A stretch of 31,363 nt of DNA, taken from positions 1 to 31,363 of IMG/VR virus record IMGVR_UViG_3300012664_000303. One strand, given 5' to 3'. Position numbers and translations under genes: made by a program. The notes below the pieces were generated by a model. That model had not been told where the DNA came from. It did not search any database and saw nothing but the letters and a program-made list of their open reading frames with translations. The stretch is from a virus. Its lineage: Duplodnaviria; Caudoviricetes. Shown here piece by piece: positions 1 through 9,444 of the stretch; position 1 is the first letter of the stretch, and every line of letters starts with the position of its first letter.

Positions 1-55
1 AGGTCACTAGCCTTTCAAGCTAGCAAGACGGGATCGTTACCCGTACGCGATACCA
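1..55 (+). tRNA. tRNA-Glu(TTC), 5' end outside window
   Basis: Anticodon arm CTAGC-CT TTC AA-GCTAG; T arm ACGGG-ATCGTTA-CCCGT; CCA at 53-55. Confidence 0.85.
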
Positions 56-146
56 TATTAAAACGCAAAAGCGTTGGTGGTTGACGAATTATCAAACAAG
101 TGCTTTCCACATGCAGGCGTTGTAGATAATGCGTTTTAATATGGTA
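51..146 (+). ncRNA. Stem-bracketed inter-tRNA element A
   Basis: Perfect 17-bp inverted repeat TACCATATTAAAACGCA (51-67) / TGCGTTTTAATATGGTA (130-146). Confidence 0.5.
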
Positions 147-152
147 GTTTAT

Positions 153-226
153 AGCGGGAAGGTCAAGCGACCCGAGCAGTCTCATAAGCTGCATCGAGGG
201 TGGAGCGTTACCACCTCCCGCATCCA
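153..226 (+). tRNA. tRNA-Met(CAT), initiator-like (1:72 mismatch)
   Basis: GCGGGA/TCCCGC acceptor with A1:A72 mismatch; GCAGT-CT CAT AA-GCTGC; T arm GGTGG-AGCGTTA-CCACC; CCA end. Confidence 0.75.
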
Positions 227-229
227 ATT

Positions 230-311
230 TTGTAGTAAAACCCGACAGGAACGGGAGCCCAGGTTTTGGGTCAAGATCGCAACTTGTGAGGTTCGAGTCC
301 TCGACTACAAA
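230..311 (+). ncRNA. tRNA-like RNA with non-canonical anticodon loop, long variable arm, no CCA
   Basis: TTGTAGT/ACTACAA acceptor; CCCG/CGGG D arm; GCCCA-GGTTT-TGGGT; CAAG/CTTG variable arm; TGAGG-TTCGAGT-CCTCG T arm. Confidence 0.6.
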
Positions 312-321
312 TTATTTTTAT

Positions 322-399
322 TGGCCACGAGCGTGCATGGTGTATGCGCCTGACTGTTAATCAGGATTGAGCTTGGTTCGATTCCAAGGTGGCCAGCCA
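322..399 (+). tRNA. tRNA-Asn(GTT)
   Basis: TGGCCAC/GTGGCCA acceptor; CCTGA-CT GTT AA-TCAGG; TTCGATT T loop; GCCA end. Confidence 0.9.
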
Positions 400-483
400 G
401 AGCAAATAGTTATCTTGTTTTGATGCATGGTAACTCAACGGTTGTTAGTGACGATGGGTGTTATCGGAACTTCCACTAATTTA

Positions 484-558
484 GCATTGTAAACTTTGGT
501 AGTGAAGTCCAGCCTCTTAAGCTGAGAGAACTTGGTGCAACTCCAAGACGATGCACCA
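484..558 (+). tRNA. tRNA-Lys(CTT)
   Basis: GCATTGT/ACGATGC acceptor; CAGC-CT CTT AA-GCTG; T arm CTTGG-TGCAACT-CCAAG; ACCA. Confidence 0.8.
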
Positions 559-560
559 GA

Positions 561-707
561 TTTTGAGATAGACGACGAAGTTGAGTCCCTTGTGCGCTAG
601 GTCCCTATTCTTGTGACTGACACACCAGTAGCAACACAAGGTTGTTTAAACTCCTTTGATCGAGACACACTGATGAGTCCTTGAGAAAGATAGTCAGTCT
701 CTCAAAA
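561..707 (+). ncRNA. Putative ~145-nt structured RNA
   Basis: Terminal stem TTTTGAGA (561-568) / TCTCAAAA (700-707); internal CCTTGTG/CACAAGG and GCTA/TAGC helices; no plausible ORF. Confidence 0.45.
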
Positions 708-716
708 ACCTTTTAT

Positions 717-810
717 GGAAAGTAATGCAGCGGGGATGGTCCTGCGACTGGCCTTGAAAACCAGGTTCTGCTTAATCGCGGATGGGGTTCGACTCCTCTG
801 CTTTCCGCCA
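717..810 (+). tRNA. tRNA-Ser(TGA), probable 8/4 fold
   Basis: GGAAAGTA/TGCTTTCC 8-bp acceptor; 4-bp T stem GGGG/CCTC; CT TGA AA loop; long variable arm; G73-CCA. Confidence 0.8.
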
Positions 811-812
811 TT

Positions 813-896
813 TTTGAGGTGACGCTACAGTCGTAACTGCCCGGGCAGGAGAAGACAAAAAGCCTAAGTATGCAGATGAGCTCGCATAGCCTCGAA
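813..896 (+). ncRNA. Putative small structured RNA
   Basis: TTTGAGG...CCTCGAA closing stem; hairpins CAGT-CGTA-ACTG and TATGC...GCATA; palindromes GCCCGGGC and GAGCTC. Confidence 0.35.
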
Positions 897-909
897 TTGT
901 TTTTAAAAT

Positions 910-994
910 GGATGTGTAGGAAAATTGGTAACCCCAGTGGACTGTAAATCCGCCGCCTCTGGCACTGCTGGTTCGACTCCAGCCGCATCCACCA
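910..994 (+). tRNA. tRNA-Tyr(GTA)
   Basis: GGATGTG/CGCATCC acceptor; GTGGA-CT GTA AA-TCCGC; variable arm; ACCA. Confidence 0.92.
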
Positions 995-1119
995 TTTTAA
1001 AATCATATTCAACGGAGCAAGTACCGCTAAGGTTGCGGCAACTGCATCGGTCACCTGGCAGTGGCGAAAAGTATGTGTGCCAGCACAATACGAATTATTG
1101 AGTGTGATTCTAAAATGGT
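991..1119 (+). ncRNA. Stem-bracketed RNA B with kissing loops
   Basis: ~22-bp terminal stem with one A-C mismatch; internal hairpin loops CTGGCA (1055-1060) and TGCCAG (1078-1083) are complementary. Confidence 0.6.
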
Positions 1120-1122
1120 TAT

Positions 1123-1197
1123 GGTGATATAGCACAATGGCAGTGCACTTCCTTCATACGGAATAGGTTGTTGGTTCAAGTCCAACTATCACCACCA
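1123..1197 (+). tRNA. tRNA with CAT anticodon (Met elongator or Ile2)
   Basis: GGTGATA/TATCACC acceptor; TTCC-TT CAT AC-GGAA; ACCA. Confidence 0.85.
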
Positions 1198-1210
1198 ATA
1201 TATAATTCAT

Positions 1211-1285
1211 GCCCTTGTATCCTTAATGGTAGAGGTTCGCTCTTGTAAGGCGAGTGATGCGGTTCGATTCCGTACTGGGGCACCA
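1211..1285 (+). tRNA. tRNA-Thr(TGT)
   Basis: TCGCT-CT TGT AA-GGCGA; TTCGATT T loop; ACCA. Confidence 0.88.
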
Positions 1286-1293
1286 AAATTTAT

Positions 1294-1369
1294 CTCCGAT
1301 TCATATAGCCTGGTAGTATTCATGCTTTGGGAGCATGTCGCGGGGGTTCAAATCCCTCATCGGAGACCA
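1294..1369 (+). tRNA. tRNA-Pro(TGG)
   Basis: CTCCGAT/ATCGGAG acceptor; CATGC-TT TGG GA-GCATG; ACCA. Confidence 0.9.
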
Positions 1370-1387
1370 TTTTAACATGAGGATCTT

Positions 1388-1651
1388 ATGGTAGCAAAGA
1401 ACGATATTACAGGTGATTCGATACAAACGAAAGCAAGTAGTAAAGCCTTTTCTGAAGGTATCGATAGAATCTTTGATAAAGCAAAAGAACGCGAACAAAA
1501 GGAAAAAGAAAAAGCCGAGTACTTCGCAAAGCTAGCATCAGAAACTAAAGCTAAAATGAATCAACAAGAGTTTGATCTTGAAAGCTTAGATCCTGATGAA
1601 CGTTCATGGTATTACGATGCCTATGGCGTTAAGCGTAAGAAAACAAAATAA
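1388..1651 (+). CDS. Hypothetical phage protein (87 aa)
   Basis: GAGGA RBS; N-terminal MVAKNDITGDSIQTK motif I recall from T4-like small ORFs. Confidence 0.8.
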   Translation: MVAKNDITGDSIQTKASSKAFSEGIDRIFDKAKEREQKEKEKAEYFAKLASETKAKMNQQEFDLESLDPDERSWYYDAYGVKRKKTK

Positions 1652-1652
1652 T

Positions 1653-1728
1653 GCGTGCTTAGCTCAGTTGGTAGAGCAGAACGTTGCCAACGTTCAGGTC
1701 GCAGGTTCGAACCCTGTAGCCCGCACCA
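1653..1728 (+). tRNA. tRNA-Gly(GCC)
   Basis: Canonical cloverleaf; GAACG-TT GCC AA-CGTTC; ACCA. Confidence 0.92.
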
Positions 1729-1730
1729 AA

Positions 1731-1816
1731 CTATACGTTAGGAATAACAACTAATTAGTTCCGCGAAAGCCGAGAATTAGTTGCCTATCGTTAGAAGTCT
1801 CGCCCTAACATATGGC
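1731..1816 (+). ncRNA. Putative small structured RNA
   Basis: GTTAGG/CCTAAC outer stem; CAACTAATT/AATTAGTTG inner stem capped by a GC-GAAA-GC tetraloop. Confidence 0.4.
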
Positions 1817-1845
1817 GTACAATGTGATAAGTAGTATGTTAATCT

Positions 1846-1929
1846 GCGGGTGTGGTGTAATGGCAGCCACGCTGGTCTTAGAAGCCAGTGCCGAAAGGCG
1901 TGTCAGTTCGAGTCTGACCACCCGCACCA
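1846..1929 (+). tRNA. tRNA-Leu(TAG)
   Basis: GCGGGTG/CACCCGC acceptor; CTGGT-CT TAG AA-GCCAG; variable arm GCC-GAAA-GGC; ACCA. Confidence 0.93.
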
Positions 1930-1948
1930 ATTAATTTTTAGGATGAAT

Positions 1949-2209
1949 ATGATTAAACCAATACGTAACAAGATTGTAGTAGAAGAAATTGATGTAGAAA
2001 CACAACATGCATCTGGTCTGATTTTAACAAGCAAGGTTACAGGTGAAATCAAACGTGCTAAAGTTCTTGCAATCGGTAATGAAGTGCAAGAAGTAAAAGT
2101 TGGTGATGTGATTATTGTCGATTGGCAACTTGCATCTAAAACTCAATATGAAAGCAAAATTGTTTTCGTTCTCAAAGAAGAAAACGTTATTGCTGTATTC
2201 GAAGAATAA
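1949..2209 (+). CDS. groES: Co-chaperonin GroES-like (Cpn10)
   Basis: MIKPIRNKIVV...SGLIL...AKVLAIG...VKVGDVII...LKEENVIAV; start moved downstream of tRNA-Leu. Confidence 0.9.
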   Translation: MIKPIRNKIVVEEIDVETQHASGLILTSKVTGEIKRAKVLAIGNEVQEVKVGDVIIVDWQLASKTQYESKIVFVLKEENVIAVFEE

Positions 2210-2211
2210 TT

Positions 2212-2287
2212 GCCGCTAAAGCTAATCTAGTGAAAGCGATGGACTGAAAATCCATAGAGTCTGGAGCGTAACCAGATGGCGGCACCA
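2212..2287 (+). tRNA. tRNA-Phe(GAA)
   Basis: GCCGCTA/TGGCGGC acceptor; ATGGA-CT GAA AA-TCCAT; T loop AGCGTAA; ACCA. Confidence 0.88.
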
Positions 2288-2397
2288 AATAAGTGTAGTC
2301 GCTCTACACAAGAAAACACTGCGACCTTAGCTTGGCCGGGCGGTATGTCAGTTACGAAACAGTTGGGTAAAAGTCCCTATGGCTAGGCACGATTTAT

Positions 2398-2472
2398 ACC
2401 CCGTTAGTATAGTGGAAAATACTCTAGGCTACGAACTTAGGGACGGTGGTTCGATTCCATCACGGGGTACCA
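2398..2472 (+). tRNA. tRNA-Arg(ACG)
   Basis: ACCCCGT/ACGGGGT acceptor; CT ACG AA loop; ACCA. Confidence 0.9.
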
Positions 2473-2484
2473 GACAAATAATAG

Positions 2485-2513
2485 TGTACAACGAATTATT
2501 TTTGTGGTATAAT
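2485..2513 (+). promoter_or_regulatory. Phage early-type promoter upstream of the GOLLD-like RNA
   Basis: TGTACA-N17-TATAAT with extended -10 TG. Confidence 0.75.
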
Positions 2514-2519
2514 ATAAGT

Positions 2520-3395
2520 TAATGGCAGCATGATGTCATTAGGATAAGTGTAGCGATACACCCAAAGCTGGAAAGCCTACATACCAGCGCTAGTAATAGT
2601 CCATTCATGCAAGCATGCTTGGGCCCGTGAGGGTCTCTTCACTAATAAGACTGGTGGAGATAACAATGAAGCAAGTGTTGTGGAAAGAATGTTTACTTAA
2701 AGGCTTGAGTCGAAAGACGAGAGGAACCTAAGTGGATAGAGACCAACAGGTGGTGCTGTGGCTCACAACTAACCAACTTGTCAATTGGTACGAGAAAGTG
2801 TAGTGTTATATTTCGAAGGGTCGCTCCTAAGAGGTGTAGCGCAGTATTAATGGTTAGTGGCGGGTACGCGAAAGCCGAGACCCCGACACCGATCGTGAAA
2901 TACGTCTGAGTAGCTCGCGAGGCAAAAGGAACATGGTGTGTTGTATTTTGTATCTAACAAGATATGAAGCAACTGAGGCAGCACATCATAGTAGGTTGTT
3001 ATAGCGTAATGGTAACGCAACTCCCTGTTAAGGAGTCGACTATTGGTTCAAATCCAATTAACGATTAAAATGCAAAGACTGCCTCAGTTGATTGTGAAAA
3101 TCATCTAACGCTCGAGTCGTAAGACAATCGAGTCCGATGGATCCCGCAAGGTGAAGTTGGTTTGTACAATGAATTTCGTAATGGTTTAGCGACCGTGAAT
3201 TGCTCGCAAGGCAAATGTAAAGAATTGTGTAGAGTAACAATCAATGATAAGTCTAGTGCCTGACTTTCAAAACGGCGATGATGTTGAAGTACAGTAATAC
3301 CGCAAGGGTTATTGTGGATGTCTAGAGAAGAGTTGCTCGCAAGGTGGCTTATAATGCTAGAAGCTTCAACGCAGAGGGTGTAATCTCAGCCCTCT
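2520..3395 (+). ncRNA. GOLLD-like giant structured RNA (~875 nt)
   Basis: No credible ORF; many GNRA-capped hairpins (GTGA, GAAA, GCGA, GTAA, GCAA x4); 3' hairpin AGAGGGTG-TAATCTCA-GCCCTCT; own promoter; tRNA-cluster context; embedded tRNA. Confidence 0.75.
2994..3067 (+). tRNA. tRNA-Asn(GTT)-like domain embedded in the GOLLD-like RNA
   Basis: GCGT/ACGC D arm; ACTCC-CT GTT AA-GGAGT; ATTGG-TTCAAAT-CCAAT; G-U-rich acceptor; no CCA. Confidence 0.7.
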
Positions 3396-3434
3396 ACATA
3401 TTAAAGTACATTCGATGAGTGTATTTCAATATGT
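3396..3434 (+). other. Hairpin D (possible processing stem)
   Basis: ACATATTAAAGTACATTC-GAT-GAGTGTATTTCAATATGT; same arm consensus and A-C mismatch as stems B and C. Confidence 0.5.
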
Positions 3435-3438
3435 GATT

Positions 3439-3513
3439 GGACCAATAGCTTAATGGTAAAGCAGTCGACTCATAATCGACCGAGTCTTGGTTCAATTCCA
3501 AGTTGGTTCACCA
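3439..3513 (+). tRNA. tRNA with CAT anticodon (probably Ile2, or Met)
   Basis: GGACCAA/TTGGTTC acceptor; GTCGA-CT CAT AA-TCGAC; ACCA. Confidence 0.88.
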
Positions 3514-3542
3514 TTTACAACGAATTAAATCTGTGATATAAT
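3514..3542 (+). promoter_or_regulatory. Early-type promoter
   Basis: TTTACA-N17-TATAAT; spacer resembles that of the 2485 promoter. Confidence 0.65.
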
Positions 3543-3563
3543 GTCTATATAAAGGAATATGAA

Positions 3564-4145
3564 ATGCAAGTAAATCTACGTAAAGCAAATGCAATCCAAT
3601 CTGAAATCCGCAAGGCGATTCAGGCAGTTAAGTTGGAACTCAATGTTGCAGTGACTGAGTACACTGTTGATGTTCCAGCAGGTTTGGCAGTTGCGCAAAC
3701 AAATTTCTTGTCTGCAATCAAGCGTAAAGAAGCATTGAATGGTGTGTTGTTTAACATTCGTGCGACAGTTGGTCGTATCAATGCAACATCAGGTATTTCA
3801 GATGTGTTGGCTCAAGTTCAACGCGTTGATGCATTGATGACTATCGTTGGCACTGTGGCTAATGCAGCTGAAGCAAAGCCATTGAGTGAAATCACAGCTC
3901 GCATCGATAAGATGAAAGCAAACACTAACGTTGATTCACGTGCAGCTTTGTATGGCGAACGTTACAACAACGTTGAAACTAGTGTTGTATCAGCAGAAAC
4001 AATTGCTGAATACAAAAACAAGATGAAAGAATTAAAGCGTGAGAAGCAAGCGCTTCAAGATAAACTGTTGACACTGAACGTCAGCACAACTATCACTTTA
4101 AATGCAAGTGAAGTTGATCTTCTGAAAGAAGAAGGTATCTTGTAA
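3564..4145 (+). CDS. Coiled-coil protein, DIP1984/DUF6847-like
   Basis: AAGGA RBS; helical; ...IRATVGRINATSGISDVLA... and C-terminal ...LKREKQALQDKLLTLNVSTTITL resemble the family layout (by eye). Confidence 0.6.
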   Translation: MQVNLRKANAIQSEIRKAIQAVKLELNVAVTEYTVDVPAGLAVAQTNFLSAIKRKEALNGVLFNIRATVGRINATSGISDVLAQVQRVDALMTIVGTVANAAEAKPLSEITARIDKMKANTNVDSRAALYGERYNNVETSVVSAETIAEYKNKMKELKREKQALQDKLLTLNVSTTITLNASEVDLLKEEGIL

Positions 4146-4150
4146 AGTTT

Positions 4151-4406
4151 TGAGAAGGATGATAGGAAGTTACAAAGGTAAATCGCAATTTAGCCTTAAA
4201 AGCTGAATACAAATATTACAATTGGTCTTGAAAACCCAATCGTGCAACACCGGTCAACTCATAGTAGTTGCTCTTAGGAATAAACTATCAGACGAAAGTC
4301 GCTTGCTTATTGCTCCTAGGACGTATAAACTTTGTGACCTGCTTTTTGTATATTGTATCTTGCAGGTTGCCAAGCGGTTTTCCGTAATGGAATTGATTCC
4401 TTCTCA
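4151..4406 (+). ncRNA. Putative ~255-nt RNA with 7-nt periodic YTGY repeats
   Basis: Terminal stem TGAGAAGGA/TCCTTCTCA; six in-register heptads at 4332-4373; GAC-GAAA-GTC hairpin; duplicated TTGCTCYTAGGA..ATAAACT. Confidence 0.6.
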
Positions 4407-4426
4407 CCTAATGTGTCATGACTAAT

Positions 4427-4471
4427 CTCAGGAACTCCCGTACACCTGAGTTAAAATAACAAAAAAACGGG
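4427..4471 (+). ncRNA. Compact H-type pseudoknot (preQ1-I-like topology)
   Basis: CTCAGG/CCTGAG stem; loop CCCGT pairs with ACGGG after an A-rich linker. Confidence 0.45.
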
Positions 4472-4476
4472 GCCAT

Positions 4477-4550
4477 GCGGGATTAGTTTAATGGTAAAAC
4501 GAGATCCTTCCAAGTTCAAGTCAGGAGTTCGATTCTCCTATCCCGCTCCA
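4477..4550 (+). tRNA. tRNA-Gly(TCC)
   Basis: GCGGGAT/ATCCCGC acceptor; CT TCC AA loop on a weak stem; TCCA. Confidence 0.85.
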
Positions 4551-4576
4551 AATTTATTGCTGCAAATTCTTAAAGA

Positions 4577-4807
4577 ATGTTTAAAGTATTAGAAAATGAT
4601 AAGGAACTGTACTTAGCAAAAACTCTAGATGAAGCTATGGTGTTTGCTAAAGGTTATGGTTATTTTGTGACTATCAAAGGTAATGACTTTGAAGTCGTTG
4701 GTAAATTCGGTGTTGATACTGTTGCTGATGGCAAATGCCCAGACGGTATCGCATATGATTGGAATAAGGCATCACGCATTGGTCGTGTAAAGAAAGAACG
4801 TATATGA
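4577..4807 (+). CDS. Hypothetical phage protein
   Basis: 76-aa ORF between tRNAs with phage-like codon use. Confidence 0.75.
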   Translation: MFKVLENDKELYLAKTLDEAMVFAKGYGYFVTIKGNDFEVVGKFGVDTVADGKCPDGIAYDWNKASRIGRVKKERI

Positions 4808-4835
4808 AACGAAAACATAAACCTCGAAAACCTAT

Positions 4836-4910
4836 GGGGGTATAACTTAACGGCTAAAGTATCTGGCTTTTAACCAGGAAATCAGAGTTCGATTCTCTGT
4901 GCCCCTACCA
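4836..4910 (+). tRNA. tRNA-Lys(TTT)
   Basis: TCTGG-CT TTT AA-CCAGG; TTCGATT T loop; ACCA. Confidence 0.9.
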
Positions 4911-5010
4911 TATAAAAACACATTAACGACAGTTTAACGGACAAGCAGGAATTTATTCCTCCGTGTTATACAGAAGGCTTTGTATAACGGTTAGTGTGTT
5001 TCTATATGGT
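4907..5010 (+). ncRNA. Stem-bracketed RNA C
   Basis: ACCATATAAAAACACATTAAC / GTTAGTGTGTTTCTATATGGT stem; inner GTTATACA/TGTATAAC hairpin. Confidence 0.5.
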
Positions 5011-5144
5011 TATAGCGAAGAACATTGAAGTTGGTGGCAAGTAACCGAGACGACCACCTTGACGATTAAAGAAAACTGCTGGTAAAACCGATAAATTCCT
5101 TCTCAGGATTTGCAGTAGGCGACGTTAATGTTCTTCGCTATAAC
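5009..5144 (+). ncRNA. Stem-bracketed RNA E
   Basis: Perfect 18-bp GTTATAGCGAAGAACATT / AATGTTCTTCGCTATAAC; inner GGTGG/CCACC and ACTGC/GCAGT helices. Confidence 0.55.
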
Positions 5145-5147
5145 TAT

Positions 5148-5221
5148 GGTGTTAGTAGTGTAGTGGCTGCACAGCTGTCTGTGAAACAGTTAGAGAGGGT
5201 TCGATTCCCCCTTTCACCCCA
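5148..5221 (+). tRNA. tRNA-His(GTG), with acceptor mismatches
   Basis: G-1/C73; GCTGT-CT GTG AA-ACAGT; CCA. Confidence 0.75.
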
Positions 5222-5230
5222 AAAAATTAT

Positions 5231-5305
5231 GCCTTGTTAACTCAGCGGTAGAGTGTCTCCCTTACAAGGAGAAGGTCGGCGGTTCAATCCCGTCACAAGG
5301 TACCA
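5231..5305 (+). tRNA. tRNA-Val(TAC)
   Basis: TCTCC-CT TAC AA-GGAGA; ACCA. Confidence 0.9.
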
Positions 5306-5313
5306 AGTTTAGT

Positions 5314-5387
5314 TCCTGATGTGGTGTAAGTGGTATGCACACGATTAGCGCGCAGAGGTGGCAGTTCGATTCTGTCCGCAGGAGCCA
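5314..5387 (+). ncRNA. tRNA-like RNA lacking a proper anticodon arm
   Basis: Bulged acceptor TCCTG(A)TG/CGCAGGA plus GCCA; D arm; GGCAG-TTCGATT-CTGTC T arm; no 5-bp anticodon stem. Confidence 0.55.
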
Positions 5388-5420
5388 ATGATAAATATGT
5401 AAAACAACTTTGGAGTGATC

Positions 5421-5978
5421 ATGAATGTTTTAGCACTAGATGTAGGTGGAATTCCTCGTCAATGGCTATCGTTCGAGCAAGCGATCCTCTATCAAGCTAA
5501 AAAGCAAGTAGCATGGTCGCTTGGAGATACGGTAGCAACTTTCCGTGGTGGGTTACAAAATGATGGAACAGAATCCATCCTTGAAACTCCATCAATCATT
5601 GCTATTCGTGGCGGCGAAGGTTTCAACCCAGCTAAATTAGGTAATGTTGTTTTGACTAACAAAACCCTATTCGGTAGAGATCGACATGTCTGCGCGTACT
5701 GTGGCAATCATTTTACTGCTAATAACCTTTCCCGTGATCATATCATTCCTGTTTCACGTGGCGGTCAGAATGTTTGGATGAACGTTGTGACTTCATGCAA
5801 GAAGTGTAACTCTGTGAAGAGTGACAAAACACTTAAGGAAGCTGGTCTAGAATTACTGTATGTTCCATATGCACCTAATCATTACGAACATATGATTCTT
5901 CTGAATCGTGGAATTTTGGCAGATCAAATGGAATACTTGGCAGCAGGTGTTCCTAAACATAGTAGAGTGTTTAACTAA
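5421..5978 (+). CDS. HNH endonuclease (McrA-like, zinc-binding)
   Basis: RDxxxCAYCG...DHIIPVSRGG...NVVTSCKKCN; alternative start GTG 5415. Confidence 0.92.
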   Translation: MNVLALDVGGIPRQWLSFEQAILYQAKKQVAWSLGDTVATFRGGLQNDGTESILETPSIIAIRGGEGFNPAKLGNVVLTNKTLFGRDRHVCAYCGNHFTANNLSRDHIIPVSRGGQNVWMNVVTSCKKCNSVKSDKTLKEAGLELLYVPYAPNHYEHMILLNRGILADQMEYLAAGVPKHSRVFN

Positions 5979-8854: not shown

Positions 8855-9133
8855 ATGGCAAAAATAGCATTAATCGGAGACAGTACAACGGATGGCGGTG
8901 TTCTAACACAGAATCCACCATGTCATGTAAAAGTAGGTGGTGTTGAGATAGCACTTGATCAATGTCATGTGACACCTCACAATCCAACTAATAGCATACA
9001 TGGTCAACAAGCAAATAATCTTGTTACTGCATCAGGTAAAGTGACTATTAAAGGAATAAAGGTTGTGATGCACGGAGATCCAGCAACATGCGGTGCAACT
9101 GCAGTTGCTACATCAAAAGCATCAACATCTTAA
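8855..9133 (+). CDS. PAAR-like spike tip protein (T4 gp5.4-like)
   Basis: MAKIALIGD...GG...VTIKGIKVVMHGDPATCG; AAGGA RBS. Confidence 0.8.
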   Translation: MAKIALIGDSTTDGGVLTQNPPCHVKVGGVEIALDQCHVTPHNPTNSIHGQQANNLVTASGKVTIKGIKVVMHGDPATCGATAVATSKASTS

Positions 9134-9134
9134 A

Positions 9135-9418
9135 AGAATTGTTGTAATCCCTTCAAAGCGAAGGACTTCTGGACGCGGGTTCGACTCCCGCCATCTCCAC
9201 CATAAGGAAATTGATATGAAAAAAGATTTGAACCCAATTGCAATTTAATTTTCTTATGATGGGGATGCCATGGTTTCGACAGGGGTAGATAGTAGAGACG
9301 GCAACACGGTAGGCGATGACCGCAAATCAAGCAAATCTCAATAACTGCAAACGATGAGTTATTCGCTATCGCCGCTTAAGGCTAGCTGAGGTAACTATAC
9401 CTTATTACCAAAAATAGT
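9135..9418 (+). ncRNA. ssrA: Permuted two-piece tmRNA
   Basis: Acceptor piece with T arm and CATCTCC-ACCA (ends 9202) precedes the 5' piece GGGGATG...TTCGAC (9261); G3-U70; tag frame 9347-9379 = ANDELFAIAA*. Confidence 0.92.
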
Positions 9419-9444
9419 AAAGGCTCCTTCGGGAGCCTTTTTTT
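9419..9444 (+). terminator. Rho-independent terminator
   Basis: AAGGCTCC-TTCG-GGAGCCTT followed by a T run. Confidence 0.9.

Follow-up and report, generated by a model that had tools for sequence, protein, structure and literature searches.

A phage transfer RNA (tRNA) island in which several long stems begin at the CCA end of a tRNA and bracket unrelated sequences raises two questions, namely, whether these stems belong to one family and what becomes of the RNA that they enclose. The island, which includes a GOLLD RNA, spans positions 1-5400 of IMG/VR virus record IMGVR_UViG_3300012664_000303; the window, that is, the whole stretch of DNA analyzed, is this 31-kb record (31,363 nucleotides) and comes from a T4-like phage with a gp59 helicase loader and a gp32 single-strand binding protein (PHROGs). 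One conserved RNA frame, opening at a tRNA CCA or at the GOLLD 3' end, appears to enclose exchangeable small RNAs (hereafter cargos; frame and cargo together form a cassette). The frame, its pairing at the RNA level, its spread, the gain, loss, and exchange of its cargos, and conserved structure in some of them are directly supported by the observations below.

Stems that open at tRNA 3' ends

The stems of the window are listed here, where bp and nt stand for base pairs and nucleotides, frame positions are counted from the first C of the tRNA CCA (position 1), and the distal box is an element of ribonuclease III (RNase III) sites described later.

51-146, plus strand: cassette 1, 17 perfect bp, 62-nt cargo, degenerate distal box (pairing, fold)
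808-911, plus strand: degenerate fifth frame, 3' of tRNA-Ser (sequence by eye, fold)
991-1119, plus strand: cassette 2, a frame of 22 positions with one A.C (position 9) and two G.U (pairing, fold)
3396-3434, plus strand: empty cassette, a frame with a 3-nt loop and A.C at position 8 (pairing, fold)
4907-5010, plus strand: cassette 3, canonical, 21 positions with one A.C (position 8) and one G.U (pairing, fold)
5005-5148, plus strand: long-stem RNA, 27 bp, different arm class (pairing, fold)
9200-9259, plus strand: intervening segment of a transfer-messenger RNA (tmRNA), with a CA-initiated 14-bp stem (9201-9258), a further cargo slot (ARAGORN, Rfam, fold)

The initial annotation had described three long stems (51-146, 991-1119, and 4907-5010) and an empty version (3396-3434), all of which were found at these coordinates, with the left arms of the long stems opening in the ACCA of an upstream tRNA (tRNA-Tyr, tRNA-Lys, and a truncated tRNA assigned to Glu by eye). 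The A.C mismatch that it had placed near-identically in three of the four is indeed present at position 8 in 3396-3434 and 4907-5010 and at position 9 in 991-1119, and absent from 51-146. Its listed stems are real, but the degenerate frame at 808-911 and the 27-bp stem at 5005-5148 were overlooked, and the similarity that it saw in the tmRNA stem holds for the CA start and the geometry, whereas the arm sequence differs. Within 1-5400, five stems of 17 positions reach a score of 14.5 or more, the fifth of them being 5005-5148; the mean in 40 dinucleotide shuffles is 0.35 (maximum 2), and the count is 0-2 in each of four other 5.4-kb blocks of the window. The frame at 808-911 pairs CCAUUUU with AAAAUGG, has an 8-bp inner helix and a large bulge, and ends in the GG that opens tRNA-Tyr; its interior is 83% identical over 72 nt to a cargo of locus L003 that lies in a canonical frame 3' of tRNA-Gln. 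The 27-bp stem extends from the predicted downstream cut of cassette 3 to G-1 of tRNA-His, and a near-identical copy is present in L004, while its inner part reappears in other stems of L010 and L097.

The frame has the consensus CCAUAUA-AAAACACAUU paired with AGUGUGUUUC-UAUAUGG. A pattern composed of the T-arm and ten bases per arm matched 124 viral (IMG/VR) stretches (~430 estimated), a frame-only pattern gave estimates of ~770 viral and ~1700 metagenome stretches, and a short-loop pattern matched 88 more stretches. Only 10 frame matches were detected in 185,579 GTDB genomes; they lie on small contigs of draft assemblies, mostly metagenome-assembled genomes, with 1-9 tRNAs nearby, and are probably mis-binned phage DNA. 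Among cultured phages, positions 1-5400 were matched only by isolated tRNAs or short GOLLD segments, and the cassette 3 frame found no match. The frame family belongs to the tRNA islands of uncultured phages. When frames and cargos of the window and of 40 short loci selected to represent the main cargo families were compared with Rfam, nothing except tRNA exceeded the gathering score, and 14 long loci gave tRNA, GOLLD, and tmRNA only, among the best 150 of 301 matches.

The compensatory changes on which the initial annotation had staked its proposal do occur in relatives: positions 11-17, which lie outside the first search pattern, are paired in 94-100% of the stems (n=102), where C-G, U-A, and U.G replace one another. 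Over 168 stems, 135 G.U pairs are spread over nine positions, whereas 89 of 92 A.C mismatches fall at positions 8-9. Because G.U is widespread while A.C is confined to these two positions, the pairs are those of sense-strand RNA, and it is in this form that the frame pairs.

Coupling to tRNAs was observed both from the tRNA side and from the frame side. In 135 sequences, whose loci were mostly pattern-selected, a stem (at least 13/16) starts at 174 of 1593 distinct tRNA 3' ends, compared with 5 of 1593 at an offset of +30; 78 of the 174 lie outside the scan pattern, and of these 78 a few are offset duplicates or acceptor stems. A search without the tRNA requirement placed 169 of 254 frames 3' of an ARAGORN-called tRNA, 119 of them behind Lys(UUU), Gln(UUG), or Glu(UUC). 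Per gene, with a filter that misses CCACCA ends such as that of Tyr, frames follow 60/78 Lys(UUU), 21/68 Gln(UUG), 30/70 Glu(UUC), and 12/61 Leu(UAG) genes, and 9% or less of other tRNAs. The bias toward Lys, Gln, and Glu may be explained by shared descent of the slot. In 58 of 169 cases of a separate count, the upstream CC pairs with the GG that starts the next tRNA, so that the outer helix would have to compete with the folding of both tRNAs.

Exchange and structure of the cargos

The 255 distinct contexts contain 239 cargo sequences in 145 BLAST clusters, 93 of which are singletons, and the Chao1 estimate is ~290 clusters, a figure to be read with the tendency of short-sequence clustering to under-merge. 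Near-identical cassettes sit behind different, unrelated tRNAs and also occur in tandem. Most of the 30 contexts with a 29-nt cargo share one nearly unchanged sequence, which lies 3' of many unrelated RNAs. Empty frames are common, with a loop of 9 nt or less in 33 of 75 short contexts.

The reusable cassette and the swapping of cargos among related tRNA islands, both suggested by the initial annotation, can be followed slot by slot as gain, loss, and exchange. The GOLLD slot is empty in the window and in L004 and filled in L001, and the L001 cargo from the frame behind GOLLD is the content of the tmRNA intervening segment in L004, which supports the link to the tmRNA stem drawn at the outset; that such a segment appears, from this match, to be able to carry cassette cargo is new here. 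Behind tRNA-Lys, three different cargos are present in the window, L001, and L004, and cargo 3 of the window is found unchanged in L004, there behind a hairpin instead of tRNA-Lys. Homologues of cargo 1 occur in L046/L135 and L136, each framed by a different arm sequence. Such exchange most likely took place via putative recombination between near-identical frames in co-infecting phages.

Two candidate relationships were discarded: a third pattern match of cargo 1, in L137, is frameless and was taken as chance, and membership of window cargo 3 in a 23-locus AAGCAGGAAC family was rejected, as only a short motif is in common and the window fails the pattern. A separate 11-member cargo family (~90 nt; L001:4544, L002:977, L022, and 8 more in oriented coordinates) has a different, more variable CCA-initiated stem and lies mostly behind tRNA-Glu.

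Conserved structure was detected in some cargo families only. Cargo 2 (1000-1112) is a covarying four-way fold, with 11 distinct sequences, framed in all cases, whose alignment has 92.5% of the cells of the four-way junction paired; 23 of 46 pairs are altered on both sides, a result equaled by 0 of 500 shuffles, with slid controls near 40%. Its adjacent loops CUGGCA and UGCCAG could pair over 6 nt in every one of the 11 sequences, and their invariance makes this a kissing pair without covariation support. Other cargo families have a constant core beside a varying hairpin, and T-arm motifs occur in 12 of 369 cargos, compared with 1.4 in shuffles. In a family of six cassettes (L020, L038, L051, L052, L072, and L075), the loop of a hairpin matches the complement of a segment further downstream, and by eye the two seem to change together; this family possibly forms a pseudoknot. 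Ribozyme cargos were rejected in a rough scan for core motifs, in which hepatitis delta virus (HDV)-like and hammerhead cores numbered 0 and 1 among the 369 cargos, compared with 2.1 and 0.9 in shuffles, and Rfam was silent.

Proposed release by host RNase III and competing readings

An RNase III site of Escherichia coli (E. coli) consists of an 11-bp helix with a U-A/U.G distal box and an A-U-rich proximal box (Pertzev and Nicholson, PMC1540722). A G-C pair beside the cut blocks catalysis, with 14-fold suppression in the E. coli minimal substrate and binding retained in vitro; T7 R1.1 has a U.C mismatch at this place, and one half-site plus 6 nt upstream suffice for cleavage (PMC1540722). A site spans 22 bp according to a review (PMC3867540), and in vivo E. 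coli sites favor G-C between the two cuts and G at position J (PMC6212723).

We lean toward a model in which the frame is a host RNase III processing site that would release the upstream tRNA, the downstream tRNA, and the cargo. A staggered cut by the host enzyme, with 2-nt 3' overhangs, is predicted at CCAUAUA^ and CUA^UAUGG, by which the upstream tRNA would be freed with a 4-nt trailer behind CCA, the downstream tRNA with a short leader of a few nt, and the cargo closed by a 10-12-bp stem. The outer helix would fall apart after the cut, host 3' exonucleases would trim the trailer and RNase P the leader, and the cargos might then act as stable trans RNAs. The predicted products are 60-139 for cassette 1, 1000-1112 for cassette 2, in which the U.G/U-A box lies 8-9 pairs further in, and a 27-nt hairpin (3403-3429) for the empty cassette; in cassette 3, with U.G/U-A at positions 16-17, the cuts are predicted after 4914 and 5004.

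This model was examined by scoring six determinants over eleven registers, with the U.G placed ninth from the cut (from the numbering of PMC1540722, the span of PMC3867540, and the position-J preference of PMC6212723) and the box positions deduced from the text of the cited papers. Among the pattern stems, 56 of 108 scored at least 5/6 at position 8 and none did so at the ten other registers, compared with a mean of 4.5 and a maximum of 13 when pair order was permuted; the register one pair further in, tried as a candidate, was rejected (0/108 at 5/6). Among 60 stems found by pairing alone, 21 reached 5, of which 13 did so at position 8 (permuted mean 5.5, maximum 14). The window frames at 991, 3396, and 4907 score 5 of the 6 determinants, and in the stem at 991 the mismatch and the distal box are displaced jointly by one. 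Pairing continues through position 17 in 3 of 4 window frames and 94 of 102 pattern stems, and 18 of 33 empty frames have at least 11 inner pairs. The distal box, whose positions were absent from the first pattern, is exact in 48 of 108 stems and takes the form of pyrimidine-purine plus U-A in 99 of 108, while A-U at positions 9-10 is near invariant, being partly fixed by the search patterns.

No match to the RNase III family was found in 5 of 5 long related phage records, which points to the host enzyme. In T4 tRNA maturation, the tRNA precursors are among the known substrates of RNase III (PMC4810235). The sequence of the window suggests a betaproteobacterial host because it contains a permuted tmRNA of betaproteobacterial (beta) type. 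A weak lead comes from 12 ribosomal RNA operons of the family to which a Polynucleobacter genome belongs, where the 23S leader-trailer helix is similar at its base to the inner half of the frame (top-three profile hit in 5/12 operons). Long hairpins also lie behind the spacer tRNA-Ala in 5/12 operons, so phages are not alone in having a hairpin behind CCA.

Several observations weigh against this model. Position 8 is the inhibitory G-C in 97 of 255 frames and in 20 of 75 short frames; the RNase III-type site proposed by the initial annotation is supported by the single-register fit and the lack of a phage RNase III (5/5 records), but this pair does not agree with the E. coli rules. The preferred G-C at position 1 of the proximal box (position 11) is found in only 28 of 255 frames, and the pairs between the predicted cuts (positions 6-7) are A-U/U-A, so that the in vivo preference for G-C is not followed, although a minimal substrate does not need it (PMC6212723). 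Of the empty frames, 15 of 33 have 10 inner pairs, one below the 11 needed in vitro, and the stem at 51-146 is without a distal box and has only 3 of 6 determinants. The search patterns themselves contribute part of the register score, and 12 of 75 control stems located elsewhere than behind tRNAs also reach 5/6. Cargo interiors as a group fold no better than shuffles (z -0.32, n=159; in a second set of n=145, mean fold z -0.43 and pseudoknot z 0.16), and plain tRNA spacers fold at lower z (-1.65, n=120), probably because they contain terminators and missed tRNAs. A contig of sequencing run X2 (939-1197, no differences) runs uncut through cassette 2, but it may be precursor or DNA and decides nothing.

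It is also possible, but unlikely, that the stem stays uncut and serves as a clamp or protein-binding handle, with RNase E, RNase P, and exonucleases cutting the flanks while the stem shields the cargo or tethers it to a protein of the phage or host, possibly to RNase III that binds but does not cleave. The G-C at position 8 (97/255 frames) is the change that permits binding but not cleavage in vitro, the right-strand C at this position in 217 of 255 frames resembles sequence recognition, and the frame sequence is more conserved than usual for RNase III sites. However, the upstream CCA is buried in the outer helix, as is, in 58 of 169 cases, the GG that opens the next tRNA, so an intact clamp is incompatible with two mature tRNAs; in addition, empty frames contain nothing to protect. 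Less probable again is a real processing site whose cargos are mostly functionless passengers, such as decayed tRNAs and neutral inserts. The absence of a folding signal across the cargos as a group, the 93 singletons among 145 clusters, the T-arm motifs (12/369 against 1.4 in shuffles), and the common empty frames would all fit such passengers, whereas the cargo 2 fold that survives 23 two-sided changes, the constant core with a freely varying hairpin in several families, and the almost invariant 29-nt cargo behind many unrelated upstream RNAs would not.

There is only a slight chance that a phage nuclease of another fold recognizes and cuts the frame. Such an enzyme would agree with the almost exclusively viral family (~770 stretches versus 10 in GTDB genomes), the imperfect match to E. 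coli rules, and the HNH nuclease gene directly behind the island, but a search confined to the RNase III fold found no homologue in 5 of 5 records, and the single best register agrees with the rules of the host enzyme. The least probable reading, that a small DNA mobile element inserting at tRNA 3' ends has the arms as its terminal inverted repeats and that RNA pairing is incidental, would account for near-identical cassettes behind unrelated tRNAs and in tandem, but is disfavoured by the retention of sense-strand G.U and one fixed mismatch instead of perfect repeats, by the strand bias (135 G.U versus 3 A.C outside positions 8-9 in 168 stems), by the lack of target duplication in the listed contexts, and by the unrelated, non-coding interiors.

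The island and its relation to known systems

Besides the stems, the following features of the island were identified.

1-55, plus strand: 3' portion of a tRNA, truncated by the window start and ending in ACCA (by eye, not called by ARAGORN)
910-994, plus strand: tRNA-Tyr(GUA), CCA donor for cassette 2 (ARAGORN, Rfam)
1123-1197, plus strand: tRNA-Met(CAU), 3' of cassette 2 (ARAGORN, Rfam)
2514-3396, plus strand: GOLLD RNA, whose 3' end continues into the empty frame (Rfam and conservation; 5' boundary inferred)
2994-3067, plus strand: tRNA-Asn within GOLLD (ARAGORN, Rfam)
3439-3513, plus strand: tRNA-Met(CAU), 3' of the empty frame (ARAGORN, Rfam)
4836-4910, plus strand: tRNA-Lys(UUU), CCA donor for cassette 3 (ARAGORN, Rfam)

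The truncated tRNA has the anticodon loop CUUUCAA, from which Glu was read by eye. Further tRNA-like genes overlooked by ARAGORN lie at 153-226 (with a CAU anticodon loop), 230-310, 29-39, and 2263-2273, several with a variant T-arm (GGAGCGUUACC type). The GOLLD RNA comprises the 3' domain matched by Rfam (2933-3392) and a 5' part (2514-2932) kept in 8 loci, with a promoter-like site at 2485-2513 before it, and RNA contigs from two runs connect 2997/2998 with 3067, representing relatives without the GOLLD tRNA-Asn or with a different insert. The permuted tmRNA (9091-9442) matches RF01850 (191 bits) and RF04321 (155 bits) and encodes the tag ANDELFAIAA; its Rfam match, CCA acceptor piece, intervening segment, and tag frame are those of a two-piece betaproteobacterial tmRNA. 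Parts of the window are contained in 24 sequencing runs, all from freshwater and at the level of contigs only, with shares of 0.22 and less, and placing 4 + 4 of the runs on the window yielded no RNA end positions.

Several conserved spacer elements were also observed. A structured RNA at 560-712, directly 3' of a tRNA CCA and with its own 8-bp closing stem, has homologues in 10 loci and no match in an Rfam search, and other elements 3' of tRNAs lie at 400-480 (6 loci) and 1730-1845 (10 loci), the 3' part of the latter resembling a promoter within a hairpin. The stretch at 4146-4430 is non-coding, conserved in 7 loci, and without an Rfam match; in RNA run X2, a contig over 4200-4316 reaches a depth of 1367 and shows adapter sequence at 4316, and the stretch is a candidate abundant RNA. 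Upstream of it, 3564-4145 encodes a 193-amino-acid protein without a Pfam or PHROG match, which is kept within the tRNA islands of 10 viral loci. Immediately 3' of the island, an HNH endonuclease gene (PF14279) occupies 5415-5978; T4 SegB mobilises a tRNA island, and by analogy this endonuclease could do the same here.

Phage tRNA islands contain many RNAs of unknown function, such as GOLLD and ROOL. By means of the frame, hundreds of candidate small RNAs can be located precisely and their ends predicted. It also offers a testable maturation route for the 3' ends of phage tRNA, GOLLD, and tmRNA, and a natural modular design to release any small RNA from a polycistronic transcript. Beyond processing, a tentative and rather doubtful idea is that the frame is a standard RNA expression cassette of phages that infect freshwater bacteria, in which one host RNase III handle would mass-produce, alongside the tRNAs, a swappable library of structured small RNAs acting as counter-defence effectors. 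On this still speculative idea, the library might number hundreds (145 clusters seen, ~290 estimated), and its members might, equally tentatively, include tRNA decoys of anticodon nucleases, mimics of RNA antitoxins, and aptamer sponges such as the kissing-loop RNA at 1000-1112. If it were true, the coupling to Lys(UUU), Gln(UUG), and Glu(UUC) would link release to those tRNAs that host defence attacks most, and the cargos, as effectors, would be the RNA counterpart of the variable anti-defence protein loci of phages.

Among known systems, T7 RNase III stems (R1.1 and the minimal substrate; PMC1540722) resemble the frame in an ~11-bp half-site, a U.G/U-A distal box, a proximal box rich in A-U (in the frame partly fixed by the search patterns), and, in many frames, a pair next to the cut that is weak or mismatched, and both T7 and the window phage carry several sites of the same design per genome. 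Unlike these, the frame opens in a tRNA CCA, encloses non-coding cargo of 30-170 nt in place of a small loop, and in many cases has G-C next to the predicted cut, whereas T7 sites punctuate messenger RNA. The leader-trailer helices of rrn operons similarly bracket a stable RNA for release, but their hairpins have no common sequence or cargo families, and the enclosed RNA is fixed, not swapped. The T4 tRNA cluster yields the stable non-tRNA species 1 and 2 RNAs. It is matured by host nucleases including RNase III, as would be the tRNA island of the window, which also comes from a T4-like phage and contains non-tRNA RNAs, whereas a repeated, sequence-conserved frame with exchangeable interiors is not described in the sections consulted of that report (PMC4810235). 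In the two-piece tmRNA segment (RF01850, RF04321), as in the frame, CCA is immediately followed by a stem ending beside the 5' G-run of the next stable RNA, but the arm sequence differs. Theta ribozymes, which are HDV-like (PMC10879173), are likewise RNA elements directly behind phage tRNA 3' ends and remove a trailer, whereas the frame is a plain helix whose cargos (n=369) have no HDV-like or hammerhead core above chance.

GOLLD beside tRNA islands and with internal tRNAs is already known (PMC12286853), and Fremin et al. list 8,495 candidate RNAs from IMG/VR (PMC10690425); the arm sequences are absent from four supplements of that study, the remaining ones of which may list some cargo families. 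In the literature searched, neither a standard CCA-anchored frame with a large library of exchangeable interiors nor an occurrence of the exact arm sequences was found. RNase III stems in phage transcripts are already known, whereas the CCA-anchored frame with its library of unannotated small RNAs appears to be new.

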